A stretch of DNA of 64,000 nucleotides from a phage, in sequence record PZ445134.1, one strand, 5' to 3'. Below the pieces are notes generated by a model that worked only from the letters and a program-made list of their open reading frames with translations, had not been told where the DNA came from and did no database searches. Below, piece after piece: positions 4,009-60,552 of the stretch. Made by a program: the position numbers and the translations under genes. Positions within the stretch are counted from its first letter, which is position 1; each line of letters starts with the position of its first letter.

Positions 4009-4094
4009 ATTTTCCTCATTAGCGTCCGAAGACGCCTTTAGTTTTAAGATTGTTACGATAGAACTGCATCACATGTTCGTTATGGAAATACTCA

Positions 4095-4541: not shown

Positions 4542-4617
4542 GCTAATTTCCTCAATTGATTAATGTTTTTGTAATCCATGAGAGCATTATACTCTGCTCT
4601 CAAGAGTTTGTACAATT

Positions 4618-4846: not shown

Positions 4847-4876
4847 ACTATACCATAATCCTACCTTGATGTAAAC
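4847..4876 (-). promoter_or_regulatory. early-type promoter (GTTTAC ... TATAGT)
   Basis: minus strand GTTTACATCAAGGTAGGATTATGGTATAGT. Confidence 0.4.
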
Positions 4877-5332: not shown

Positions 5333-5400
5333 GATGTTATCCTCTTTTAGATAGGACTACTATATCATAGTCCTACTTAGTTGTAAACACTTTTATGAAA

Positions 5401-6181: not shown

Positions 6182-6222
6182 AATTACCCCTAAAGAAAAA
6201 AAGGGACCGAAGTCCCCAATTA

Positions 6223-7167: not shown

Positions 7168-9381
7168 TTATTTGGCTGCTTCCACAGCCTTCATGAATTT
7201 AACGATTTGAGCGACTTGTTCTTTAGAAAGAGTACCACGTCGTCCCATGTATTCTGACACAATATGATAATTGGTTTCGAATTCAATAACCATTTTATCA
7301 TCATTATCGTAAGCATTATCTTTAAGCTTATCGAAAATTTTAGCACACAATTCTAACTTCCTGTTCAGGTCTCTGTTAGTAGCACCTGAGAATCGATTCC
7401 ATCCCCAACGATTATTTACTGATGAGAGTTTTGCAAAATCTTTACTGATTTCTTTGTTCTTAGAGCTAAAATACTTACTAAGGAAGTTAAGCTCTTCATT
7501 ACGAGTAATATGATTCAAATAAGGCTGTGCTCTACGACTTGGTGATACATACTCATCATAATCCACTTTATCAATTAGCGTAATATAGTCATTAATTGAT
7601 TTTTCGAACAAGCATTCTACTTCACCAAGTTTACGAACTTTCTTAGCGATCTGTGGACGGACTACAGTGAACTCTTTAATACCTGACAAATCAGCAATAC
7701 GGGTCAAGAAATTAGAGTCATAGTTCAACCAACCTTTATCTGCGTCAAGACATTCGGCATTAGAACGATTACGAACTATAGCATAACCTTGGATTTCATC
7801 AGCTTCACTCGCTGGAATAAAGAGATCTTCTGATACCCAAACATCGTTTTCATTCTTAAAGAACCGATGAGCACTCGGGGATTTAGGACGAGGCCCATTA
7901 GAACGAGTCTTGACTTCAATCCATGGCTTAACGATTTGTAAAAGCTCTGAAGTCTTGTACATGTTAATGGTGTCGCCATCAAAGATAACTTTAAGGCGTT
8001 CCAGAAGTTTCATTGCATCTTCGTCTGTAGGGTCAACGAATAGTACGCTTTTACCAAAACCGCGTGGAACTTTACCGGTTAATTTAACCTCGTCTTTAGA
8101 CATTTCAATTGAATTAAGAGCTCGCATTAATGGAACACGTCCCTTAACGTCGTCAATAACAATTTCAACGTTTTTAATGTTAATGCCAATCAGACTGTTA
8201 ATTGAAATAGTTGCAGATGAGCTACCACTTTCACGAATACGACGAAGACGAGGGTCTTCAATGATATCGTATACGACGCCGAGATTACACCATTCAGGTC
8301 CCATTTTAAAACGTTTGTACAACTCAGAATAAGTTAGTTGTTCTTTAGAGTATTTCAGTGATTCAATATTAGACCCGGCCTTTTCCATGTATTTACGAGC
8401 TGTATAGCCAAGAGAATCAATTTCACGGAACACATGACGCGGGTATTTACAATCAATCCATTTCTTAGAATCTTCAGCGAACAATTTAGCATCGATTTCT
8501 GCAACGCGTTTATGGATATTTGCTACTGTACGTTTATCAAATGACAATGCTTCACGAGACGGGGCTACATCTAGTTCACCCATAGGGAATTTAATATAAG
8601 CTGTAGTGCATCGCGTCATCATCCATGTTTGTTCTTTAATAACACTTCCAATTGGATATACAATACCACCATAAACAGCCATGATATTACCACGTTCACC
8701 CCATGGAGCTTCCTTGGCTAAATAAACATCATCGAATTCCGGGAAGTATTTAATATCTTTAACACCACGAACTTCTGCAATATCACCTAGAGGACGCATA
8801 ACATATGCAATTTCAGATGCGAACTTTTCAAAATCTTCTGGGTTAACAGGCACAACTACTTCAACGCCGGTCCGGTCATCAGGACCCATCTTATCTACAA
8901 AGGTTGGCTTAATCTGTGGACCTGTGTCATCTTGATAAATTACATAACCACGAACTTCACCGTTGTGATAAGACGTAAGGTTAAACGTATCGGTATATGC
9001 TAGTGGAGCTTTAGAACCGAGACCGAATCCACCAATGAAATCGTTACTCGATGTTTTAGTTGAAGCAAAATATGAGTTATAGATTCCTGGCTCTTCGTCA
9101 TTACCTCGAATGGTGAAATCACTCATACCAGGACCAAAGTCTCGAACTACAAAACGTGGATCTAAACGACCTGGCGCCTGAACAATAAACTTATCAGTGC
9201 AACCATTAAGAATTTGTCCATCGATACAGTTTGTGATTAATTCACGTACACAAGCCAATTCTTTGTTTGTATAAAGGTCGTTAGACAAAATCTTATAAAC
9301 TTTGCTATTGCCTTGAATAGTAAATGCTGTGCTCTTACCGCCTGAACCAATAATCGTTTCTTTAGCCGTTTCAATAATCAT
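7168..9381 (-). CDS. rIIA: rIIA protein (GHKL-like ATPase N-terminus)
   Basis: 737 aa; synteny with rIIB; N-terminal ATPase-like region. Confidence 0.85.
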   Translation of the reverse strand: MIIETAKETIIGSGGKSTAFTIQGNSKVYKILSNDLYTNKELACVRELITNCIDGQILNGCTDKFIVQAPGRLDPRFVVRDFGPGMSDFTIRGNDEEPGIYNSYFASTKTSSNDFIGGFGLGSKAPLAYTDTFNLTSYHNGEVRGYVIYQDDTGPQIKPTFVDKMGPDDRTGVEVVVPVNPEDFEKFASEIAYVMRPLGDIAEVRGVKDIKYFPEFDDVYLAKEAPWGERGNIMAVYGGIVYPIGSVIKEQTWMMTRCTTAYIKFPMGELDVAPSREALSFDKRTVANIHKRVAEIDAKLFAEDSKKWIDCKYPRHVFREIDSLGYTARKYMEKAGSNIESLKYSKEQLTYSELYKRFKMGPEWCNLGVVYDIIEDPRLRRIRESGSSSATISINSLIGINIKNVEIVIDDVKGRVPLMRALNSIEMSKDEVKLTGKVPRGFGKSVLFVDPTDEDAMKLLERLKVIFDGDTINMYKTSELLQIVKPWIEVKTRSNGPRPKSPSAHRFFKNENDVWVSEDLFIPASEADEIQGYAIVRNRSNAECLDADKGWLNYDSNFLTRIADLSGIKEFTVVRPQIAKKVRKLGEVECLFEKSINDYITLIDKVDYDEYVSPSRRAQPYLNHITRNEELNFLSKYFSSKNKEISKDFAKLSSVNNRWGWNRFSGATNRDLNRKLELCAKIFDKLKDNAYDNDDKMVIEFETNYHIVSEYMGRRGTLSKEQVAQIVKFMKAVEAAK

Positions 9382-10805: not shown

Positions 10806-10832
10806 TTAAAATGAAGCTCCCGAAGGAGCTTA
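10806..10832 (-). terminator. hairpin (UUCG tetraloop) overlapping gene 39 stop, followed by U-rich tract
   Basis: minus strand AAGCUCC-UUCG-GGAGCUU then CAUUUUAAUUUU. Confidence 0.45.
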
Positions 10833-12690: not shown

Positions 12691-12713
12691 AGCAAAAAGG
12701 GCCGAAGCCCTTA
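12691..12713 (-). terminator. intrinsic terminator (GGGC-UUCG-GCCC + U5)
   Basis: minus strand AAGGGC-UUCG-GCCCUUUUUGCUUU. Confidence 0.55.
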
Positions 12714-14561: not shown

Positions 14562-14620
14562 ATTATTCTCCTCTGGTTGATGTGGTTATAATATCAAAAC
14601 CAGAGGAGAAGTAAACAACT

Positions 14621-15040
14621 TTATGCAAAAGACGCTGGACAATATTTTTTGATTTGGAACTCAGGAACTACCATGAACTGACCAGCGAAAACGATGTTAT
14701 AAAGCTTAACACCATCTTCTACCCAACGGTCGCTAATAAATCCGGCGATTTGCTTAGTTTTCCATGGAGACCCATCAGTTGCAGCAGCAATAGTAAATTC
14801 ATGGTCTTTTACAACTAAAACTGATCTGCATAGTCCCCATTTGAACGCTTTTTCTTCTGGTTCAATGAATTGGCTTTTAACATAACCAATATTACCATCG
14901 GCGTCACGAACTTTAACTTCGTTACGTCCAAAAACCGGATCACTCACAGAAAGAACTTCAACCAACTTCCCGGCAACTTTAGAGCGAGAAGCAACAGATA
15001 CATATACGTAATCACCTGTAGAGAGATTTACAATATTCAT
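14621..15040 (-). CDS. hypothetical protein, tandem paralog A (139 aa)
   Basis: shares SRSK(A/V)AG(R/K)LVEV and GFISD(Q/R)WVEDG.KLYNIVF.G.F.VV blocks with the adjacent gene. Confidence 0.55.
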   Translation of the reverse strand: MNIVNLSTGDYVYVSVASRSKVAGKLVEVLSVSDPVFGRNEVKVRDADGNIGYVKSQFIEPEEKAFKWGLCRSVLVVKDHEFTIAAATDGSPWKTKQIAGFISDRWVEDGVKLYNIVFAGQFMVVPEFQIKKYCPASFA

Positions 15041-15049
15041 AATAATTCC

Positions 15050-15505
15050 TTAAGCTTTACGAGGAGACACATAGCGAGTGATTTCAGATTCTTTAACAAC
15101 TCGGAAGTCACCTAAGAATACGATATTGTATAACTTTTCACCATCTTCAACCCATTGGTCACTAATGAAGCCACACATAGTATCAGTTTTGCTTGGATAA
15201 CCATATTCGTCGATGAAGTCAAATTCTTTATCAGTCTGGAATTCAACACCTTTACACAAGGCCCATTTGAACTGTACATTAGGCTCATTGGAAGCAGAAT
15301 GAGCGCTCACAGGATTTTCCAAGAATTTAGGACTTACATAAGCGAACTGAACATCTTTTTGCCCAAAGTTATAAATGATTCGAACTTTAACTTCTTTAAT
15401 GCGTCCCATGCCATTTGTGCGAAGTCCCACCACTTCAACCAATCGTCCTGCAGCTTTAGAACGAGATACAGGCGATACATACTTAATTTCACCAATAGTA
15501 ATCAT
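15050..15505 (-). CDS. hypothetical protein, tandem paralog B (151 aa)
   Basis: see paralog A; RBS AGAGAGAGA; promoter cassette upstream. Confidence 0.55.
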   Translation of the reverse strand: MITIGEIKYVSPVSRSKAAGRLVEVVGLRTNGMGRIKEVKVRIIYNFGQKDVQFAYVSPKFLENPVSAHSASNEPNVQFKWALCKGVEFQTDKEFDFIDEYGYPSKTDTMCGFISDQWVEDGEKLYNIVFLGDFRVVKESEITRYVSPRKA

Positions 15506-15534: not shown

Positions 15535-15564
15535 ATTATACTCCAACCATCCTTGGTTGTAAAC
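15535..15564 (-). promoter_or_regulatory. early-type promoter cassette (GTTTAC ... CCAAGGATGGTTGG ... TATAAT)
   Basis: minus strand GTTTACAACCAAGGATGGTTGGAGTATAAT; same cassette recurs at 57599 and 58592. Confidence 0.5.
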
Positions 15565-15569
15565 TGATT

Positions 15570-16247
15570 TTATCGCTGTTTTACACTTAACGGGTCAGGA
15601 TTCTCAGGGACATCTTCAAGGCCAAGCGCATAACGCTGAGCATATTTTAACATCAAAATATCTTTAGCACAATCATGAATACTATCATGGGCAATGAATC
15701 CTTTTAACGTACCTATCGGTAATGGACACATACTTAATCCTCGTGTCAACGAGTAAGCTTCGATTGCCGTACGAATATCGCGTTGAGCCCAGAATTTAAC
15801 CGGTTCTAATTTATCAGTATCAATCTCTGGTTCAGGAACACCTTCATCACGATAGAGATCACGAATCAAATCGACCAAGATCGGGAAGTCAAAGCTCATA
15901 CCACGACACCACATCTGTGATTTCCATTGGTCAACTTTATTAGCTCGGCAATAATCTAAAAAGATTTTAATGCCTTCAAGCGTAGTGACATCGTCTTCAG
16001 ACGGAGCCAAGTTTTTACGTGCTTCAGCCGATTGTTCTTTCCACCATTTCATAGTGGATTTAGCGAAAACTCGCTTCCCTTTCTGAGAAGCTAAATTAAA
16101 TTTAATTCGCTTACCTCGTTGAACAAGTTCTTCAAATGATTCAACAACTTCAGGGTCGGAATTATATGCAATAACCGCAAGGTCAATAACAGCCGCTTTT
16201 GATGTATTGCCGAATGTTTCAAAATCTATAATAACATCAGTGCTCAT
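15570..16247 (-). CDS. dexA: exonuclease A (DnaQ-like 3'-5' exonuclease)
   Basis: 225 aa; N-terminal IIDFETFG exonuclease motif; synteny with dda. Confidence 0.8.
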   Translation of the reverse strand: MSTDVIIDFETFGNTSKAAVIDLAVIAYNSDPEVVESFEELVQRGKRIKFNLASQKGKRVFAKSTMKWWKEQSAEARKNLAPSEDDVTTLEGIKIFLDYCRANKVDQWKSQMWCRGMSFDFPILVDLIRDLYRDEGVPEPEIDTDKLEPVKFWAQRDIRTAIEAYSLTRGLSMCPLPIGTLKGFIAHDSIHDCAKDILMLKYAQRYALGLEDVPENPDPLSVKQR

Positions 16248-20028: not shown

Positions 20029-20244
20029 GATAGACCTCCATTTAAAGATAAGCCTATCATAACACGAGAGGAGGGAATGTAAACTACTTTTTAAGCTTTC
20101 CTACTAAAGGTCCATCAGGGCCGGGTTGTTCTAACATGAATAAGGATGCTTTAAAAAGCAATGTCAGCCCTTTCACCATTCGATACCATGTCTCAAAGTC
20201 TTTTTCCTTGATTTCTAGTAAGAATTTCTCTTTAAATTTCTCTT

Positions 20245-21573: not shown

Positions 21574-21600
21574 CAAAAAAAGGAATCCCGAAGGATTCCT
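21574..21600 (-). terminator. intrinsic terminator downstream of soc
   Basis: minus strand AGGAAUCC-UUCG-GGAUUCCU then UUUUUUUG. Confidence 0.55.
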
Positions 21601-21608
21601 TAAATTAT

Positions 21609-25390: not shown

Positions 25391-25453
25391 TTTAACTCCT
25401 TAGTTGATTTGATAGGACTACTATACCATAGTCCATCTATAATGTAAACAACT

Positions 25454-26912: not shown

Positions 26913-26967
26913 TTTGTTCTCCAGTAGTTGATAGGTCTATAATAACACAACTACTGGAGAAGTAAAC

Positions 26968-27342: not shown

Positions 27343-27430
27343 AGTGTTTTCCTCTTGGTTTGTGTAAGTACATCATATCATGCCTAGAGGAAGATGTAAA
27401 CCCCGAAAGGAGACCGAAGTCTCCTTTTTA

Positions 27431-28882: not shown

Positions 28883-29245
28883 TTAAAAGAATTTAAATTT
28901 TTTCTTGGTCCGTTCATTAAAAGCTTGTTGTACTTGCATTGTAACACATTTTTCAACATGTGGTGCAAGTTCTGCTTTTCTGTCCTGGTCAAGAACTGCA
29001 AAGTCCATTACGATTTTACCATCAACCCAGTCTAGTTTTGTAATATAGACTATATGATGAGAACCATCTTCAAGTGTAATCAGAATCTCTTGAATGACAT
29101 TTTCCATTGCTGAACGGATAATTTTAAGAGATTCATTAAACACTCGTTCTTTGCGAATGTCTTCCCCTTCCGAAGAAGGGGATTCATCAACGATTTCTAG
29201 ATTTAAATCATCGAGATTATTCATCGAAATCTTCCATTTCATCAA
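28883..29245 (-). CDS. hypothetical protein (120 aa), gene 40 position
   Basis: located between 41 and uvsX as T4 gene 40; not verified by sequence. Confidence 0.4.
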   Translation of the reverse strand: MMKWKISMNNLDDLNLEIVDESPSSEGEDIRKERVFNESLKIIRSAMENVIQEILITLEDGSHHIVYITKLDWVDGKIVMDFAVLDQDRKAELAPHVEKCVTMQVQQAFNERTKKKFKFF

Positions 29246-37077: not shown

Positions 37078-39789
37078 TCAAAAATCGAACATATCGAAAA
37101 GAGATGCTTTCTTCTCGTAATCGAGTTTCGCTGCTGATGTGAATCCTTCAAGTGGTTTAATAAATGTCTTCTCAAGGAGAACAGTGTAGTCCATCCAATG
37201 AAGTACGTCGTCTTTAATTAAATCTGTGATTTCAGTACCGGAAGGCCATGCGATACATTTATCACCGAATGGGTTTCCTTCACGTAAAGGCAGAACATAT
37301 ACTTTTTCACCTTCTACAACTTGCGGTGCATCGATATTACCTTTGATAGCACGGTTATACGTCAGAATTCCACGAATATGGAATGGGCATTTGGGACCAG
37401 GGAATCCACCTACATCATATTTAGCAATGTTATTCGCAGAAGATACTGACGCGATGCTAATATAATTCAATTGACGGAATTCTTTTTCAAACTCTTTAAA
37501 ATATTCTTGTAATGATTCTTCACCTTCTTGAAGCATACGACGAATACATTCTTTAAGAGCTTTCTGTACTGCTTTAGGAGTCGAAGATTTCTGAGTCTCT
37601 AGACCCATGATTTTGAGTTTAGGCTCAGCGTAACGAGTACCTTCCATATCCCACACGTTTAATGCATAACGTTTCTTACCAGTCCAGAATCCACCAATAC
37701 CTTTAGAACCGAGTGGAGGCCCAGCGATAGCTTCTCGGTCCATGAACATTAAGTGTTGTTTATTGTTCATGTATTCACACATTTCACGGAAACCTCTATC
37801 AATAGCTGGTTCCATACGTTCACGTGCAAACTTATCTAAGAAGTCTACCCAATGGTTGGTATCACGGAATTTAGATTCACCAACCTTATCGATAATTTTA
37901 TCAGCAGATACGTAAATAGAGTCTGTATCACCATAAAGAACGAAAGCTTCACCTTCTGTGCCACAAACTTCATTCAGATATTCATTAACTTTACGTTCAA
38001 TCCACTGTAAAGCCATTTGCCCGAATGTTGTGATTGCAGTAGCATTACGCAAATCGTAATAACGGAACCAAACGTTGCCAAGTGCACCATAAAGTGAGTT
38101 GATAAGCAATTTACGGTTAATTTGGGCAGTCATACCTGCAACTTCAGTACGTTGAGCTCTAAACAACATTTCATTAAGAGATTTAGCAGACAACTTTTTA
38201 ATCTTTTCTTTAATCTCATCGCTGAAGTCGAAACGATAATCAACATCTAATGGTCCGTCAACAGAAAGATTAGGATTATGCAATGCCTCTTTAATTATTT
38301 CACCATTACGTTGAGCCGCAAGCATGTAACCTTTATGTTCTTTACGTTGATTAAAGACTTTAGTGATTTCAGTTGGAACAACACCGTCACGGTCTTTATA
38401 ATACATCATGCCGTTAGGAGAACAACTGTACACATCTGAAGGACGTTCAGCAACAGCGTTAATATAATCATGCAATGGAGCTACTTTAAACGTTCCTGCT
38501 ATTGTTTCTGGGCTAATATTCACTTGGCGAATAATACTTGGATACAGAGATGTAAGGTCGAAACTCATTACGTATTTGTATCGATTTGGAATAGGTTCCT
38601 TAACAAAAGCGCCGGGATAAGGTTGAACCGGGTGAGAACGACCTTGTGGAATCACCTTGTTCTGCTCTTTAAGGCTATTAAAAATAATAGCATCCCATGT
38701 TTTAATTGGGCTAAACACAGATTGAATCTGTATCTTAGCATAATAACCCATGTCCAAGCTCAAGTTAATGAACTGACGTTTAGCATCAATTTGCAATACA
38801 CGATACACGTCGATAATGTTATAAGAAATATATCGTTGGTGATTGCTTTCACGAAGCTTAGAAATAGGGCCGTCATATTTCAGTTTACCAACGTTCAATT
38901 CAAATTCTGAAATGTAATCCAGAGAATATGACGGTTGATTGGTAAAAGAGAATTTTTTGTAAAGGTCAATGTAATCAAGAACAGAGATACCGAACAATGT
39001 AATGATTTCACGAGAACCATACATGTTTTCGATAACTTTAACACGAGTTTTACGATGTGGTGATAAACGTTTCGCAGTAGATTCGCCAAAAATATTCTTG
39101 ATTCGGTTATACACATATGGAATATCAAATGACTCAACGTTCCATCCAGTCAAAATGACAGGAGTTTTCTGTTGCCAGAAGTTGAGATATTCCATCAACA
39201 ATTCTTTTTCGTTATCGAACGGCATATAAATGATTTTATCGATAATTTCGGATGGGACTTCATCACCGCCTTGTTCTTGAAGCTTAGCCGCAATTTCGAT
39301 AGACCATTCTTCCACATTCCCGTATGGAGAATTCAAAAGGTCAAATACGTAGAACCTGTCGTCAATTGAGTCATAATGAGTGATAGCATCAATCGGATGT
39401 TTTGCTTGTGACGGCTCAGGGAACCCGTCTGGAGATGTTACTTCGATGTCGAAGTTAGCCACACGAATTTTTGTATGGTCGTATTTGATTTCATAGTTAT
39501 AAGTGTCAGACAAATACGCCAATTTGAAATCGTCCATGCCAAGTGCTTCAAGTCCGATATCTTCCATGCGTTTAATCCATTGGGAGGCATCACGCATATT
39601 GGCGAACAACTTACGAGTACACGGCTTACCGTAGATATCGAAATATTTCGTAGCCTGACTTTCCGGACAATGAGCAAACAGTGATGGTTTATATTCTACT
39701 TCACGAGTACGTTCACGGCCGTTAGAATCGATGTAACGTTCAAAAATTGAATCACCAATCTGTTCAACCGTTAAGTAAAATTCTTTCAT
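37078..39789 (-). CDS. 43: DNA polymerase (family B)
   Basis: 903 aa; exo motif FDIEV, pol motifs KLLINSLYG and YGDTDS; N-terminus MKEFYLTVEQIGDSIFERYIDSNGRER reads like RB69-type gp43 as recalled. Confidence 0.95.
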   Translation of the reverse strand: MKEFYLTVEQIGDSIFERYIDSNGRERTREVEYKPSLFAHCPESQATKYFDIYGKPCTRKLFANMRDASQWIKRMEDIGLEALGMDDFKLAYLSDTYNYEIKYDHTKIRVANFDIEVTSPDGFPEPSQAKHPIDAITHYDSIDDRFYVFDLLNSPYGNVEEWSIEIAAKLQEQGGDEVPSEIIDKIIYMPFDNEKELLMEYLNFWQQKTPVILTGWNVESFDIPYVYNRIKNIFGESTAKRLSPHRKTRVKVIENMYGSREIITLFGISVLDYIDLYKKFSFTNQPSYSLDYISEFELNVGKLKYDGPISKLRESNHQRYISYNIIDVYRVLQIDAKRQFINLSLDMGYYAKIQIQSVFSPIKTWDAIIFNSLKEQNKVIPQGRSHPVQPYPGAFVKEPIPNRYKYVMSFDLTSLYPSIIRQVNISPETIAGTFKVAPLHDYINAVAERPSDVYSCSPNGMMYYKDRDGVVPTEITKVFNQRKEHKGYMLAAQRNGEIIKEALHNPNLSVDGPLDVDYRFDFSDEIKEKIKKLSAKSLNEMLFRAQRTEVAGMTAQINRKLLINSLYGALGNVWFRYYDLRNATAITTFGQMALQWIERKVNEYLNEVCGTEGEAFVLYGDTDSIYVSADKIIDKVGESKFRDTNHWVDFLDKFARERMEPAIDRGFREMCEYMNNKQHLMFMDREAIAGPPLGSKGIGGFWTGKKRYALNVWDMEGTRYAEPKLKIMGLETQKSSTPKAVQKALKECIRRMLQEGEESLQEYFKEFEKEFRQLNYISIASVSSANNIAKYDVGGFPGPKCPFHIRGILTYNRAIKGNIDAPQVVEGEKVYVLPLREGNPFGDKCIAWPSGTEITDLIKDDVLHWMDYTVLLEKTFIKPLEGFTSAAKLDYEKKASLFDMFDF

Positions 39790-39870
39790 TTAATTTCCTT
39801 TAGACGAGTTATTGTCTTTTGTTTGTTGATGAACTTATTATACTCCAAATGGGACCGAAGTCCCATTGCT

Positions 39871-40248
39871 TTAATTACCAATTGTATATTTTGCTTTCAA
39901 AGTCCAGTCATCTTTCTGTTTAAAAGAGATAACACGGAAGTTATTAGTCAGGCCAAACAGATCTTCACGAGCAGAGTCTTCAATAACAATCAATCCCCAG
40001 TCTTCAAGCAACTGAGCAATCGAATCACGTCGTTGATAGTCTTCACCATCAATATCAACCTGACGTCCGTCCATACGCAGCATTTCTTTAAAGTGGACGA
40101 TGTAATATTTACCTTGCTTTTGGAGGATATGACAAGACTGGTAAAGGACTTTATCCTTGTTATTAGCGATGCCCATACGGGTCAAAGTCTCTTTGACTTT
40201 CAGAAAATCTTCAGGGTTCTTCAATTTAATTTCAATCATTTTTACCAT
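39871..40248 (-). CDS. regA: RegA translational repressor
   Basis: 125 aa; ...[47 protein letters not shown]... matches T4 RegA as recalled. Confidence 0.85.
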
Positions 40249-46476: not shown

Positions 46477-46502
46477 AAAAAAAAGGAACTCCGAAGAGTT
46501 CC
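46477..46502 (-). terminator. intrinsic terminator (GGAACUC-UUCG-GAGUUCC + U8)
   Basis: hairpin with UUCG loop followed by UUUUUUUUGC on minus strand. Confidence 0.55.
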
Positions 46503-46675
46503 TATCCACATAGTACACCATACAGAGGCTCATTTGAACTTTTAAATCGAATGGGCTTGTATGTAATAGTTCCTTCGGCTTTAGCTTTATCATAAGACTC
46601 TTTAAAACGCCTCATTCTTTCTGCTTTGCCTTTACGGATTTTATCGAAATTTTCAGAGGTCAGGTCGTTCGTCAT
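46502..46675 (-). CDS. small basic ORF (~57 aa)
   Basis: hand-translated MTNDLTSENFDKIRKGKAERMRRFKESYDKAKAEG...; ends at the terminator; below ORF-track cutoff. Confidence 0.3.
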   Translation of the reverse strand: MTNDLTSENFDKIRKGKAERMRRFKESYDKAKAEGTITYKPIRFKSSNEPLYGVLCG

Positions 46676-48360: not shown

Positions 48361-48728
48361 TTTACCGCCTTAACAATTTTCAGGTCAACGAATTTTTTCT
48401 TACGTTGATTTTTCATACGACGGATAGTCTTTTCAGAGATTTCATGTTTCTGATAAGCTTTAGATTCAACACCAAATGCAGCAACGTCAAATTCAGAAAG
48501 AATATATTGTACTAGAATTTCACGAATAGAATTACGTCCAATTTTCTGGTCGTGTTTTTGCATGATTTCATAAAGACGGAATTCCCACGCGTCAAGAACT
48601 TGAGGAGTAACAATATTGCCGGATTCAAGAAGAGCAACAACTTTATCGAAAGCGAAAGAATTAACTACGTTTTTGATTTTAGTAGACATATTATTTTCCT
48701 CGGTTATTTTATTATCCAATGAGAGCAT
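48357..48728 (-). CDS. hypothetical protein (123 aa)
   Basis: ORF track. Confidence 0.45.
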   Translation of the reverse strand: MLSLDNKITEENNMSTKIKNVVNSFAFDKVVALLESGNIVTPQVLDAWEFRLYEIMQKHDQKIGRNSIREILVQYILSEFDVAAFGVESKAYQKHEISEKTIRRMKNQRKKKFVDLKIVKAVK

Positions 48729-48758
48729 TATACTCTGCTCTCAAGAGTTTGTAAATCG

Positions 48759-55909: not shown

Positions 55910-56315
55910 TATTTTTCCTTTCATCAATTAAATATGCAATGCCAAATACAATACATGTAATAAAACCTGTGATACAGATAGAAACCAACAACACTGTACC
56001 AAAGAACCAAATCAAGTTATCTTTAGTAGTTTGTTTGATATCCATCTCACGAATTTCTATAGCTATCGTATCACCTTTATTAAGAAGCGTATAAAACGAT
56101 GGTGATACATGCCTGTCAAAAACTCGACCTTGTTCATCTTTATAAACTGCAATAAATTCCAGTTTAGAATATTTTCCTGTAGATTGACCTGAAATTAATT
56201 CCACTACCTCCACAGGAATTACTTTAGTTTCCATGTAAGTATTCTGGCTGTTCCAAATGAATGGAATGATGGCAAAAACTAAAGCTGTAATAAAACAACG
56301 AAGGCTATATCTCAT
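55902..56315 (-). CDS. membrane protein (137 aa)
   Basis: ORF track; N- and C-terminal hydrophobic segments. Confidence 0.45.
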   Translation of the reverse strand: MRYSLRCFITALVFAIIPFIWNSQNTYMETKVIPVEVVELISGQSTGKYSKLEFIAVYKDEQGRVFDRHVSPSFYTLLNKGDTIAIEIREMDIKQTTKDNLIWFFGTVLLVSICITGFITCIVFGIAYLIDERKNNV

Positions 56316-56620
56316 TATAATGTTCTCTCAAATTTGTGGAAGCATTTACGGCATTTCAATTTCAAGTTATCAGTGGTCCAGTTAACCAGTTGGACTTGGA
56401 TAGTTCCACATTCCGGACATGGATGTTTTGCTGCCGATTTGGCAGCATTTTCACGTCGTTCAACCATTTTCATTATTTCGTTCCATGCCGGAGGAACGAA
56501 CTCTTCTTCACCGTGGATTTTATCTCGCTGAACAAATTCAATCTTTGAACTATCGTCGATAAACTTAACCAAGCTGTGATTAGTGCTCATGTCAATATCC
56601 TCTAAAAGACGTAGTTTCAT
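56315..56620 (-). CDS. zinc-ribbon protein (101 aa)
   Basis: CPECG ... CRKC four-Cys arrangement. Confidence 0.45.
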   Translation of the reverse strand: MKLRLLEDIDMSTNHSLVKFIDDSSKIEFVQRDKIHGEEEFVPPAWNEIMKMVERRENAAKSAAKHPCPECGTIQVQLVNWTTDNLKLKCRKCFHKFERTL

Positions 56621-57570
56621 TATAAAACCTCAATGGCATTTCGTAAACCATCCGCTTTCGCATTCAGAGCTTTTAACGATTTAGTTTTTTCTGCAATCTG
56701 GGCTTCGACTTCTTTCAGTCGAGATTTGAGATATTCGCGTTCTTCTCTTAAATTATCAACTTTTTCTACTTTAGGTTCTTTAATAGGCTTAGGTTTATAC
56801 GTATTAGGGTTCTTCAGTTTAATTAGAATGTGTGAACTGTACAGCATTGAACCATTATCTTCGGTTTCGTCATACATTTCCACTACGTCCATCATCTCCA
56901 CCATCGTGCAGAGTTTATAAGACAACGAACGAATAGTTTTGTTGTGCTTATTAATTTCTTTAGAGTTCATGGTGCCTAGATTACGCGAGTAGTAATAAGG
57001 AACCTGGATATCAATTGTCAATGATGCGTTACCATTACCAGTTGGTTTGAATACTGCAGTAACCCAATCTTTAACATGAACTTTATTTGTACGACCATCG
57101 CCACCTGTGAATAATTTACGAGAATGTTTAAAAAGCATATTCACTTGGTTATTGAATTCACAAGCAAATTTATCAGCAAATTTAGTTTCAGGAATGGTAG
57201 ATAACCAATCAGCCAAGTAGGTCTTTTTAACATCGTTAACAATAGTAAATTCAACCAAATCGGTTATAGATGTCGCAGTTTTAATGAAGCTCGGCTTCAT
57301 AAAGTTTTTAATGTTATCGCGAGCTATAGTAGAAGATAATAAACGAGAACGTTTGAACCATTGAAGCAGTGTCCCTAATGAATGAGAATACGCATTCTGA
57401 GTATCTTTACAGATATGATTTTCTTGGCCTGTGTATGTACCAAAATCGCGAAGAATACCGCTTACTACAACTCGGTGTGGAACATCAAATCCTAATGAAC
57501 CAGAAGCACGTTGGGCATGAACGTTAGCGATAAGACCTGCAAAATAATCAACGTAATGTGAACGTGTCAT
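56620..57570 (-). CDS. hypothetical protein with C-terminal coiled coil (316 aa)
   Basis: ORF track; heptad-like C-terminus; promoter cassette upstream. Confidence 0.5.
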   Translation of the reverse strand: MTRSHYVDYFAGLIANVHAQRASGSLGFDVPHRVVVSGILRDFGTYTGQENHICKDTQNAYSHSLGTLLQWFKRSRLLSSTIARDNIKNFMKPSFIKTATSITDLVEFTIVNDVKKTYLADWLSTIPETKFADKFACEFNNQVNMLFKHSRKLFTGGDGRTNKVHVKDWVTAVFKPTGNGNASLTIDIQVPYYYSRNLGTMNSKEINKHNKTIRSLSYKLCTMVEMMDVVEMYDETEDNGSMLYSSHILIKLKNPNTYKPKPIKEPKVEKVDNLREEREYLKSRLKEVEAQIAEKTKSLKALNAKADGLRNAIEVL

Positions 57571-57598
57571 AATATTTTCCTCTCGTTAAGATAGATTC

Positions 57599-57628
57599 AT
57601 TATACTCCAACCGTCCTTGGTTGTAAAC
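57599..57628 (-). promoter_or_regulatory. early-type promoter cassette (GTTTAC...CCAAGGACGGTTGG...TATAAT)
   Basis: near-identical to cassette at 15535 and 58592. Confidence 0.5.
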
Positions 57629-57632
57629 TGAT

Positions 57633-58565
57633 TTATGATTTTAATGCATTCATTGCGTTAAAAAGTTTAGAGTACTGCAACTGGAGCTTGGTAACTACTT
57701 GTTGAGCATCACGAAGCTTAGCTTGTGCTTTGTCAAGTTCAACAGACAGTTGGTCCACAGTGGCTTTGATTTGATTATAATAGTAATCTTCGGCAGGAAG
57801 AAGACCGTTAGAGATTTCCAGTTTAGTCGACGGTGTGCCGTTAAACATAACAGGTTGTGCTGAAGCTGCATTAATCTTACCGATAGTCGGGGCGACAATA
57901 ATTGACGCTTCGAACGTTGCATTTTCCTTTTTAAGATTTTTATAATATTCAGAGTCTTTGTGCCACCATGGCGCAGGAACCTTTTTACCAATAGATACAC
58001 GAGCCTGGATAGCGATATGGCCCTTATTCTTGATAACGTCGATAATATTAAGCTCACGAGAATAAATTGCTTTAATCTGGTGAATATTATCACCTAACAC
58101 TTCCAACGCTTGGTGGAATACACGAGCAACGTTATCATTCTTAGGTTTATACGTAAGAGTGAACTCATTCTCACTGATAACCATGATTTCTAACTTATCG
58201 TAAGTATATTTCAAATGTTTCATGTTAATTGCTTGAGGACGAATACGAGAAGCAATGGCCATCAAATTGTTAAGGTTATTCCGGAACTGCTTAGCGAAAT
58301 ATTGTCCTTCACCGCCAATACAAAAATTACGAAGTTTCTGTTTGGCTAATAAACGGCTGAACTCACCATTTTTAATGAACTCTTTAACAGGTGTGTTAGT
58401 AACGCATTCAAATTGAGTAAACTTACGAGAAGTAATCCCATAATATGAACAGATTTCCTCAATCTCTTCAGGGGTCTTTACAGGCATACGGATAGGATTA
58501 GGTCCTGGAGTATATGCGTTCGAGGTAAATTCTTTGATAAGTTCTCTACGTGTAATAAAAGCCAT
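57633..58565 (-). CDS. hypothetical protein with C-terminal coiled coil (310 aa)
   Basis: ORF track; promoter cassette upstream. Confidence 0.5.
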   Translation of the reverse strand: MAFITRRELIKEFTSNAYTPGPNPIRMPVKTPEEIEEICSYYGITSRKFTQFECVTNTPVKEFIKNGEFSRLLAKQKLRNFCIGGEGQYFAKQFRNNLNNLMAIASRIRPQAINMKHLKYTYDKLEIMVISENEFTLTYKPKNDNVARVFHQALEVLGDNIHQIKAIYSRELNIIDVIKNKGHIAIQARVSIGKKVPAPWWHKDSEYYKNLKKENATFEASIIVAPTIGKINAASAQPVMFNGTPSTKLEISNGLLPAEDYYYNQIKATVDQLSVELDKAQAKLRDAQQVVTKLQLQYSKLFNAMNALKS

Positions 58566-58591
58566 TTTATATTCCTCGTGTTGAAAAATTT

Positions 58592-58621
58592 ATTATACTC
58601 CAACCATCCTTGGTTGTACAT
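58592..58621 (-). promoter_or_regulatory. early-type promoter cassette (variant -35 TGTACA)
   Basis: minus strand GTACAACCAAGGATGGTTGGAGTATAAT. Confidence 0.45.
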
Positions 58622-59616
58622 CATTCCTTAAGAAGTTTTACTACTTGAATAAGATTAGCTCGTTCTGTTTTATTTTTACCATTTAAGCCTGCTAATCGTG
58701 AGATTTCATCGTCAGTCTGTTGAATAGTTACATTAAGTTCGTTAATCAAAGCTTCAAAGTATTTGATTTGCTCAGCATGTTTTGATTCAAATTTCTGAAC
58801 CGGAATAACGTCTTGGTTCAGTTCATCAATAAGGACTTTAAGAGCATCTTCTTGGTTGATATCGTATTCAATTTCTTTTATTTCTTCAACGAGCTCGTCT
58901 TTATATCTAACGTCTTTTAGTCCTGGTGCTGGTCCTGAAATCTCTTCTTTAAGAGTGCAAACATATCCAATACGGTATCCAATGCCGTCTCGCTTGATAT
59001 CAACTTCGTCAATAAATCCACAATGTTTAAGACCAGAGCCGATTATGTCAAAATATCCTTGACGTCGTCCTTCAAACGTTACACGAACTACTAAGACAGT
59101 TTTACCACCGACCTTTTGAAGCTCACATTTATAAAAGTTTGTTGAACCTGAATAACGTGGATGAGTTTTAAAGTTCATCTGACGATCTAGGCCCATTTGT
59201 AAGCGTGCTGATACGGCCATAAAACGTGTTTGGTTCTCGTTAAGATGAGCAACAATCCATTTCAAAGGCATTTTACACTGTTCACGACCGAACAAATCAG
59301 TACGTCCTAGATTACGCAGGATGTTGTTAGAGTTAATCATCGACAGAACGTTAAGTTTATTCAGCGCGCTGAAGATTCCATCGGCCATTGATTTTCCGTA
59401 ACCTTTACACGCTTTAATAAGCGCTCGCGGTAGATTAGTATAGATTTCAGACGGCATATGAAAATCAAATTTACTAGTCAGTAATTGATGAACTTGGATA
59501 GCAATTTGCTCATAATTAAGTGCTCTGCGATCATTATGATCTTTAAACCACACTTTAATCTGTGAAGCACATAAACCGTTAATTTCATGTTTTACCGCAT
59601 CAGATGTAATGCTCAT
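58621..59616 (-). CDS. hypothetical protein with C-terminal coiled coil (331 aa)
   Basis: ORF track; promoter cassette upstream. Confidence 0.5.
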   Translation of the reverse strand: MSITSDAVKHEINGLCASQIKVWFKDHNDRRALNYEQIAIQVHQLLTSKFDFHMPSEIYTNLPRALIKACKGYGKSMADGIFSALNKLNVLSMINSNNILRNLGRTDLFGREQCKMPLKWIVAHLNENQTRFMAVSARLQMGLDRQMNFKTHPRYSGSTNFYKCELQKVGGKTVLVVRVTFEGRRQGYFDIIGSGLKHCGFIDEVDIKRDGIGYRIGYVCTLKEEISGPAPGLKDVRYKDELVEEIKEIEYDINQEDALKVLIDELNQDVIPVQKFESKHAEQIKYFEALINELNVTIQQTDDEISRLAGLNGKNKTERANLIQVVKLLKE

Positions 59617-59651
59617 ATCTATTTCCTCAGATTGAATTGGAACTCAAAACC

Positions 59652-59675
59652 ATTATAACCCGTCCTTGGGTAAAG
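59652..59675 (-). promoter_or_regulatory. early-type promoter cassette variant (CTTTAC...CCCAAGGACGGGT...TATAAT)
   Basis: same architecture as 57599 with substitutions on both arms of the spacer palindrome. Confidence 0.45.
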
Positions 59676-59678
59676 CGT

Positions 59679-60206
59679 TTATGCGTGAACCGTCTTTAAA
59701 CGTTCTTCAAATTTCCGAAGAGTACTAATACGTTCTGCTTTCTGTTTTGTATAGTTTGCAATACGTTCTGAAGTGAGAGCGTATCGTTCATTTACTGTTT
59801 CTTTCATGAAGTCAGGGATTTCACGAGAAGCTTTAATTTCATCAAACTTATCGAGTACTGCCTGGTCTTCAGCGATTAAATTTTCGTACATCTCGATATC
59901 TTTCTTGATAAACTCGATATCTTCCTGGGTTACTTTGGATAAACGAGATGCTTTATCCTTTTTGTACTGCTCGTTAGTTTCACGAGACCAGAATAATGTA
60001 CGTTTTTTGTTAGTGTTTTTGTAGACTTCCACAATTCCAACTGAATCGATGATAGCAATCCAATTCCAGCGAGATTTGAAAATCTGACCTCCATCCACGG
60101 TAATCTCGTTACCATAAGCAACGTCATTAAAGAACTTGCTTTGTGCTTCAGATTTAAATTTACCGTCGTTATAATTTACCAGGTTGAAAATATCTTTAGC
60201 GTTCAT
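59679..60206 (-). CDS. hypothetical protein (175 aa)
   Basis: ORF track; promoter cassette at ~60215-60260. Confidence 0.5.
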   Translation of the reverse strand: MNAKDIFNLVNYNDGKFKSEAQSKFFNDVAYGNEITVDGGQIFKSRWNWIAIIDSVGIVEVYKNTNKKRTLFWSRETNEQYKKDKASRLSKVTQEDIEFIKKDIEMYENLIAEDQAVLDKFDEIKASREIPDFMKETVNERYALTSERIANYTKQKAERISTLRKFEERLKTVHA

Positions 60207-60264
60207 GTTTTACCTCCAGTAGTTGATAGGTCTATAATAACATAACCATAGACCTTGTAAACAA

Positions 60265-60552
60265 CTAAAAGAAACTTTTTTCGGTATTTTTTCCACTGAA
60301 CCAAACCGATTTCGGAATTTTCTGTAATTTTTCAGATTTAAGTTTCTCTTCCTGTTCTTTCTTATATGCATCCTTGTCGTACTGGAACAACTCTAAGGCA
60401 TTCTTTTGTAGACGGTCTAAGGTAATTAAGGCTTTAGTTTTTCCTTTCAAGGAAGAGTCCTGGCGAACCTCCTCGCTATATTGCATCGTAGAACTAACCA
60501 TACGATGAGCATACAGTTCGACTGCGGCTTTAATTTTTTGCATAAAATCCAT
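60265..60552 (-). CDS. hypothetical basic protein (95 aa)
   Basis: ORF track; overlapping alternative ORF 60447..60653 not resolved. Confidence 0.35.
   Translation of the reverse strand: MDFMQKIKAAVELYAHRMVSSTMQYSEEVRQDSSLKGKTKALITLDRLQKNALELFQYDKDAYKKEQEEKLKSEKLQKIPKSVWFSGKNTEKSFF

Follow-up and report, generated by a model that had tools for sequence, protein, structure and literature searches.

The inverted repeats in the promoter spacers of a T4-type phage are, on balance, probably elements of a composite cassette, which would combine a promoter, a stem–loop at a gene boundary read through from upstream, and a short stretch of homology for recombination. The sites have the anatomy of promoters, the two arms of the repeat change in a compensatory manner, and the sites coincide with insertions and deletions of genes. 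As judged from sequence, the cassettes are of the promoter-early stem–loop (PeSL) kind known in T4-type phages, and they possibly form a distinct family that is defined by its loop. The DNA analyzed, referred to as the window (64,000 nt of record PZ445134.1), comes by similarity from a T4-type phage of the RB69-like kind (Mosigvirus): with a 5-kb query around the sites, Escherichia and Shigella T4-type phages matched at 96%–99% identity, and the matches to a 241-bp query included phages HX01, JS09, and NBG1, the records of NBG1 and RB69 being those of Mosigvirus. All genes near the sites are on the minus strand, and the motif must therefore be read as the reverse complement. The neighboring genes were named from the RB69 annotation and from searches with T4 proteins.

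Promoter cassettes in the window

The 30-mer GTTTACAACCAAGGATGGTTGGAGTATAAT was found on the minus strand of the window at 15535–15564 without mismatches, at 57599–57628 with one mismatch, and at 58592–58621 with two mismatches, and no match to it was found in 100 shuffles. The first copy is located between dexA (15570–16247) and an ORF of 151 amino acids downstream (15050–15505), the second between a homolog of nrdC.5 (57633–58565) and nrdC.3 (56620–57570), and the third between nrdC.6 (58621–59616) and the nrdC.5 homolog, an accessory gene that lies between two cassettes; all of these genes are on the minus strand. The 151-amino-acid ORF and its neighbor at 14621–15040 (139 amino acids, minus strand) are paralogs with 44% identity.

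Each of the three copies has the architecture of an early σ70-type promoter. The −35 hexamer TTTACA is located at 15558–15563 and 57622–57627 in the first two copies, while the third has a weak −35 hexamer, TGTACA, at 58615–58620; the −10 hexamer TATAAT is located at 15535–15540, 57599–57604, and 58592–58597. The match to the promoter consensus is 11 of 12 positions at 57599 (TTTACA-17-TATAAT) and 10 of 12 at 58592 (TGTACA-17-TATAAT), with the same architecture at 15535. An earlier note on this DNA had assigned the −35-like sequence GTTTAC to all three copies, which holds for 15535 and 57599, but the copy at 58592 has ATGTAC instead. The preceding gene ends with a stop codon 0–9 nt upstream of the −35 hexamer, and the Shine–Dalgarno sequence with the ATG follows 25–40 nt past the −10 hexamer.

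The palindrome in the spacer, which the earlier note had described as CAACCA-N4-TGGTTG with one copy carrying a plus-strand G in the loop, was found as described. The inverted repeat CAACCA-AGGA-TGGTTG is perfect at 15544–15559 (loop at 15550–15553) and at 58601–58616, while the copy at 57599 closes the loop with C instead of T (plus-strand G), which leaves a hairpin with five pairs and a 6-nt loop, CAACC-AAGGAC-GGTTG (57608–57623). In these early-type copies the hairpin lies ∼15 nt past the upstream stop codon; its stretch opens on the final base of the −35 hexamer and reaches to 6 nt before the −10 hexamer. Hairpins with an AGGA loop and a stem of at least 4 bp occur five times in the window; four of them are the promoters considered here, all on the minus strand, and the fifth has a 4-bp stem and is on the plus strand. 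The RB69 orthologs of all three early copies are located inside early promoters predicted in that phage by consensus score only (Nolan 2006, PMC1524935, Additional file 3), which are Pe:8947 for 15535, Pe:51019 for 57599, and Pe:52042 for 58592. The words spacer, stem-loop, and palindrome are all absent from the main text of that study.

The fourth site, at 59652–59677 on the minus strand, is located between nrdC.8 (59679–60206, minus strand) and nrdC.6, and it reads CGCTTTA-CCCAAGGACGGGT-TATAAT, with CGCTTTA at 59671–59677 and the −10 hexamer at 59652–59657. The distance from TTTAC to TATAAT is 12 nt here versus 18 nt in the early copies, which indicates that this is not the same cassette. 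The MotA box, (a/t)(a/t)(a/t)TGCTTtA, sits 12 ± 1 bp upstream of TAtaaT (T4 transcription review), and the arrangement aaaCGCTTTA-13 bp-TATAAT agrees with this definition with one mismatch (C for T) outside the GCTT center, so the site is predicted to be a MotA-box-type (middle) promoter. Its hairpin, ACCC-AAGGAC-GGGT at 59658–59671, has the same core with changed arms: compared with the early copies, an A-T pair is replaced by C-G, and the outermost pair is lost. The earlier note had treated this site as an arm-variant copy of the cassette; the consistent change of both arms is indeed seen, but it is found in a promoter of a different class and with another geometry.

The T4 ortholog of this site, GCTTTA-TACCAAGGATGG-TATAAT upstream of nrdC.7, matches by position the experimentally identified middle promoter PnrdC.7 (Hinton 2010, PMC2988021, Table 1); the start listed for PnrdC.7 (53,325) is 12 nt from the start predicted on the T4 record, and the assignment is therefore one of position only. 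Similarly to the site at 59652, the T4 promoter has a GCTTTA box 12–13 bp upstream of TATAAT and past nrdC.8, with the AGGA hairpin in between, and at both the hairpin abuts or overlaps the −10 hexamer. On the other hand, the two differ in the first base of the box (C in the window, T in T4), in the arms (ACCC/GGGT versus TATACCA/TGGTATA), and in the downstream gene (nrdC.6 versus nrdC.7), and the MotA dependence of the site at 59652 is a prediction. The site is absent from the RB69 promoter predictions.

Covariation of the stem in related phages

The three early copies of the window are near-identical over 26–30 nt, which indicates a common origin by descent or by conversion, and the window by itself therefore contains two independent variants of the stem. 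The earlier note had cautioned that four copies give weak statistical support; it is the relatives that make the covariation solid. Copies outside the window were collected from related phage contigs using a pattern free of arm and loop sequence, GTTTACA-N14-GAGTATAAT, together with a loop-anchored pattern, while the T4 sites were reached via the coding homology of nrdC.8 and not via the motif. The related contigs contain CATCCA-AGGA-YGGATG in JS98-type phages and CTTCCA-AGGA-TGGAGG in VR20- and SP18-type phages. T4 has three such promoters, which have the same loop and mutually unrelated arms: the one before nrdC.7 described above, GTTTACTTTG-CCACAAGGATGTGG-TATAAT before nrdC.4, and TTTAA-AGCCAAGGATGGCT-CGGAGTATAAAT before nrdC.3. 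The arm sets are TATACCA/TGGTATA, CCACA/TGTGG, and AGCCA/TGGCT in T4, and CAACCA/TGGTTG and ACCC/GGGT in the window. A fifth copy in RB69, CACCA-AGGA-TGGTG at ∼72.5 kb, is located inside the predicted early promoter Pe:72567. The records of Yersinia phage P8 and SP18 contained no further arm variants.

In an ungapped alignment of 18 distinct copies, taken from T4, RB69, JS98-type and SP18-type phages as well as from more distant relatives, 80.2% of the stem cells were paired, compared with 60.9 ± 2.9% when the partners were shuffled, a value reached in none of 500 shuffles. The covariation score was 0.50, while it was 0.14 with shuffled and 0.08–0.12 with slid partners. Four pair positions showed compensatory, two-sided changes, and no copy was unpaired at either of two internal pairs (AU8/UA6/CG3/GC1 and CG15/AU2/UA1). 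The loop is invariant in this set partly by construction, because the search expression required CAAGGAYG; the unbiased part of the set consists of the T4, RB69, JS98-type, and SP18-type orthologs. A control pattern, CCAAGGAYGG-N0-8-TATAAT, gave at least 121 unique matches, which among those listed were mostly due to chance: 43 of the 121 unique ones lacked any outward pair, in line with chance, and T4-type loci made up most of the excess seen at three or more pairs. By this comparison the palindrome is real and the pairing of its stem is probably kept by selection. The proposal of the earlier note that the pairing was not due to chance is thereby upheld on more copies, as pairing is retained in related phages through compensatory changes.

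The earlier note had considered two explanations, which were an operator bound by a protein and a structure on one strand. An operator in double-stranded DNA, at which a dimeric protein of the phage or the host would regulate the promoters, is in keeping with a palindrome located inside promoters and with the conserved 8–10-bp core CAAGGAYG that is common to early and middle promoters. However, such a site is expected to keep the same half-site and a two-fold symmetry, while the arm sequences differ between sites of one genome, both in the window and in T4, the conserved center AGGA is not self-complementary, and some copies pair only through G·T, which breaks the symmetry of the duplex. Besides this, the position of the palindrome relative to the −35 and −10 hexamers shifts by up to 10 bp, with a distance from the hairpin to the −10 hexamer that ranges from 6 nt to overlapping, and the review of T4 transcription describes no site-specific repressor of early promoters. 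A duplex operator is thus very unlikely. The differing arms with retained pairing, the asymmetric center, the G·T pairs, and the shifting position favor a single-stranded structure, which was the better of the two earlier options.

Gene gain and loss at the cassettes

In the previously described PeSLs the stem–loops are most common between the −35 and −10 hexamers or overlap the −10 hexamer, and the elements repeat between ORFans and have been implicated in ORFan excision and insertion (Arbiol 2010, PMC2839356). They were later extended to T4/PST, and middle-promoter versions (PmSL) were also reported (Comeau 2014, PMC4122927). The same order of an upstream stop codon in AT-rich DNA, a σ70-like promoter, a stem–loop, a Shine–Dalgarno sequence, and an ATG is found in the window, where the copies are likewise placed between small accessory ORFs, at ORF indels and replacements. 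The cassettes thus agree with the PeSLs in the early promoter, the position of the stem–loop, the stop/SD/ATG layout, and the repetition at ORF indels, and the site at 59652 is the counterpart of the published PmSL variant. They differ in the host genomes, as PeSLs were described in RB49/phi1, PST/T4, and nt-1/KVP40, while the window is from an RB69-type phage, and in the stems, which in the published families are polyG/polyC (RB49), A3-4G3...C3T3-4 (nt-1), or AGNA...TCNT (PST), while the family in the window has a weak stem of A/T and C/G pairs around a conserved AGGA loop.

Comparison with relatives indicates that the cassettes mark points of gene gain and loss between accessory genes, in agreement with the PeSL model. 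In a related contig (L052, 1353–1880) a 528-bp segment with a 164-amino-acid ORF, a homolog of motB.1, is located between two cassettes where the window has one cassette, and the alignments of the two flanks both run through the one 29-bp cassette (15535–15563). The same motB.1 indel is seen relative to a second contig (L059) and to RB69, which has motB.1 after the same cassette (8474–8934), while in the window it is missing between dexA and the 151-amino-acid ORF. Similarly, nrdC.4 is located between two cassettes in T4, while the window lacks this gene and has a single cassette between nrdC.5 and nrdC.3. The cassette that follows nrdC.8 is succeeded by nrdC.7 in T4 and by nrdC.6 in the window, in which nrdC.7 is found at ∼55938–56243. 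The footprint of these events is one copy in the window where relatives have two copies with an ORF. Tandem gene duplication was rejected as the source of the repeat, because nrdC.3, nrdC.5, nrdC.6, and nrdC.8 have no mutual similarity, so that the repeat is not a remnant of such duplication. T4 nrdC.5 counters the Dsr1 defence (PMC9391042), which means that the cassettes bracket counter-defence cargo.

The PeSL model proposes that recombination between neighboring copies gives mini-circles or deletions (Arbiol 2010, PMC2839356). The cassette is ∼30 bp long and is repeated in direct orientation, which offers homology for recombination, and such direct repeats would allow accessory ORFs to be deleted, inserted, or swapped between copies. 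If recombination were all that matters, the pairing itself could be without function: the palindrome would ride in a recombining promoter cassette and would be kept perfect by templated correction of quasi-palindromes together with gene conversion. T4 is the phage in which templated mutation of quasi-palindromes was originally described. The near-identity of the three early copies, which points to common descent or conversion, and the location of the cassettes at recombination junctions are consistent with this explanation, and so is the unremarkable energy of the hairpin (−6.2 to −7.3 kcal/mol), which has z values from −1.4 to +1.25 against shuffles in 51–101-nt contexts and is thus not significant. 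It does not explain, however, why the orthologs of T4, RB69, JS98-type, and SP18-type phages keep the pairing despite divergence of the arms at four positions of the stem, with two internal pairs never unpaired, and mutual conversion cannot account for the individual perfection of the three T4 copies, because their arms are unrelated. Moreover, stem–loops are enriched at the early promoters of this genome in general, as 8 of 19 fold with z below −1.64 (mean z −1.54, p = 0.005). We consider a functionless pairing unlikely, and return to the composite cassette.

A probable role of the hairpin in read-through RNA

In the composite cassette, an AT-rich stretch with the stop codon of the preceding gene is followed by a strong promoter for the host polymerase, with the stem–loop between its −35 and −10 hexamers, and then by the ribosome binding site and the start codon. 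The transcript of this promoter would start downstream from the stem–loop and would lack the hairpin, while transcripts coming from the co-oriented upstream gene would contain it. The earlier note had called the spacer non-transcribed, which would be correct only for transcription from its own promoter: no terminator-like site was found on the minus strand between 56500 and 60500, and as the flanking genes are co-oriented, upstream transcripts should read through. In predicted folds of 96–101-nt read-through RNA the hairpin persists and does not touch the Shine–Dalgarno sequence. We infer that the hairpin forms in RNA rather than in single-stranded DNA, and that selection maintains pairing on a single strand, most likely that of the read-through RNA. 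There it would mark the boundary between cistrons, by attenuating, processing, or 3′-stabilizing the upstream message, a consequence that is itself conjectural. As to the strand, the 18 copies have G·U cells on the sense strand, while their frequent A·C closing pair would be G·U on the other strand, and the sense and antisense folding energies of the 19 early promoters did not differ (p = 0.71). No match at the gathering threshold of Rfam was found anywhere in the window, and no transcript-end map of T4 or RB69 was found in the literature. A mini-ORF starting from the UUG after AAGGA was also considered and rejected, because its frame relative to the next ATG varies between the copies and its spacing to AAGGA is only 3 nt.

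The arrangement resembles that of the T4 genes e, soc, 49, and I-TevI, in which a hairpin buries the ribosome binding site in long transcripts while an internal promoter gives translatable RNA (PMC3014915). In both cases read-through RNA alone would contain the structure, as transcription from the proximal promoter begins within or beyond it. However, the hairpin in the window is self-contained in the spacer and clear of the Shine–Dalgarno sequence, while those of the T4 genes bury the ribosome binding site, and the internal promoters are late or middle in the T4 genes and early in the window cassettes. Another group of promoters in the window has a spacer complementary over 11–12 bp to the downstream Shine–Dalgarno region, at 26939–26966 and 14588–14615 on the minus strand (CTCCAGTAGTTG...CAACTACTGGAG), with a pairing energy of −21 kcal/mol and z values of −5.4 and −6.1; weaker examples are at 27372–27400 and 20056–20083. 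There the read-through RNA would bury the ribosome binding site and the RNA from the proximal promoter would not, which is the logic of e, soc, 49, and I-TevI at early promoters.

The papers on PeSLs call the stem–loops terminators, and terminator function was demonstrated for one G/C-rich stem of RB49 only (PMC2839356). The location of the hairpin shortly past the upstream stop codon would suit a conventional intrinsic terminator of the upstream gene. Its stem of 5–6 bp, however, has three G-C pairs and an energy of −6 to −7 kcal/mol, the sequence after it is GGAGUAUAAU, and a weak hairpin that lacks a U-tract is not a classical terminator. The scan for terminator-like sites in the 56500–60500 region of the minus strand did not detect it, and the terminator-like hairpins of this genome are of another type, with 6–9-bp stems, UUCG loops, and T-runs behind them. 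Hence, unlike in the RB49 stem, terminator activity has no support in the sequence of the window cassettes, and this explanation is highly improbable.

Ten strong C(UUCG)G tetraloop hairpins with stems of 6–9 bp were found in the window, all on the minus, early-gene strand, several of them followed by T-runs (46484–46503, 39848–39867, 29163–29182, 27406–27427, 21580–21601, 12697–12712, 10814–10831, 6202–6217, 4021–4036, and 2265–2284). Among the window hairpins whose stem has 5 bp or more, no other tetraloop comes close to UUCG in frequency, and these ten hairpins look like the real terminators of this phage. The UUCG hairpin within 39830–39867 (minus strand) follows a regA-like ORF (39871–40248) and is itself directly followed by TGGAGTATAAT, which is the GGAG-plus-TATAAT string of the cassettes, ∼40 nt upstream of gene 43 for the 903-amino-acid DNA polymerase (37078–39789).

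Other stem–loops at promoters of the window belong to further families, and the AGGA hairpin is thus one family among several. A second family, TTTACAAACTCTTGAGAGCAGAGTATAATgctctc, at 48727–48755 and 4586–4614 on the minus strand, has arms GAGAGC/GCTCTC that flank the −10 hexamer (z = −4.0 and −3.3); related contigs have GGGAGC/GCTCCC, GGGACC/GGTCC, and GAGGAC/GTCCTC at the corresponding position, which shows covariation in this stem too. In a third family, (T)AGGACTATGrTATAGTAGTCCTA, at 25420–25448, 5359–5387, and 4847–4875 on the minus strand, the hairpin encloses the −10 hexamer; the 4847 copy folds much better on the sense strand (−13.7 versus −4.8 kcal/mol) because of G·U pairs. The −10 hexamer is likewise enclosed at 60234–60261 (minus strand) by AGGTCTAT...ATAGACCT.

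The conservation of the loop raises the question of a factor that reads it, such as RegB with S1 at a processing site, or another loop-reading factor, with cleavage at the cistron boundary. Orthologous sites of four genera have in common the AGGA loop with its closing CA...YG, while the arms change. RegB cuts GG*AG/U between early genes, with the GGA unpaired, the fourth base constrained, and strong sites of the form GGAGRAYARAA (PMC3014915), and regB is encoded by RB69. Similarly to such sites, the hairpin exposes GGA in its loop, with the next base, the fourth (U), in the closing pair, and in the early copies the stem is followed by GGAGUAUAAUA, which matches GGAGRAYARAA at 9 of 11 positions in two copies and at 8 of 11 in the third; cleavage here is putative. 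On the other hand, several copies (57599, 59652, and JS98-type) have C as the fourth base, which gives GGAC, not a reported target, and the 3′ GGAG is absent from two T4 copies, PnrdC.7 and the nrdC.4 promoter. Secondary structure protects against RegB according to the review (PMC3014915), and the conservation of the loop is in part an ascertainment effect. Specific RNA recognition of this kind is therefore a doubtful explanation. We give a similarly low probability to a broader proposal, in which CA-AGGA-YG on any stem would be a loop-specific element of early and middle promoters across T-even-type genera, and a factor, which may be RegB/S1, another nuclease, or a ribosome attracted by the Shine–Dalgarno-like AAGGA, would read it in read-through RNA and so separate accessory cistrons.

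A similar core was seen in DNA that has no detectable relation to the window. Four environmental contigs (L180, ∼82–99; L221, ∼1136–1154; L241, ∼2214–2232; and L244) have consensus TTGACA/TTGACT-17/18-TATAAT promoters with the CCAAGGATGG core in the spacer, extended by other complementary arms (GC/GC, TCG/CGA, ATA/TGT); L241 is weakly similar to ligase genes of the T4 type. The shared core may reflect no more than how common spacer hairpins are in phage promoters generally, while if loop-specific reading were true, the same core in the promoters of L180, L221, and L241 would be a wider convention and not chance. A conserved promoter-like sequence, TTTACTTGTCAAGGACGTGGCGAGTATAAT, present in eleven contigs of ∼5 kb to 178 kb (L122, L126–L128, L130, and L132–L137), also contains CAAGGACG, there without complementary arms.

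The composite cassette has consequences for how T4-type genomes are read. Portable modules of a promoter and a hairpin would help to explain how host-range and counter-defence genes are swapped without disturbing the expression of their neighbors, and the cassettes would give annotators a marker for the boundaries of transcription units. With a conserved loop and a freely covarying stem in both early and middle promoters, this family offers a clean test case for the putative function of the PeSL stem–loops.
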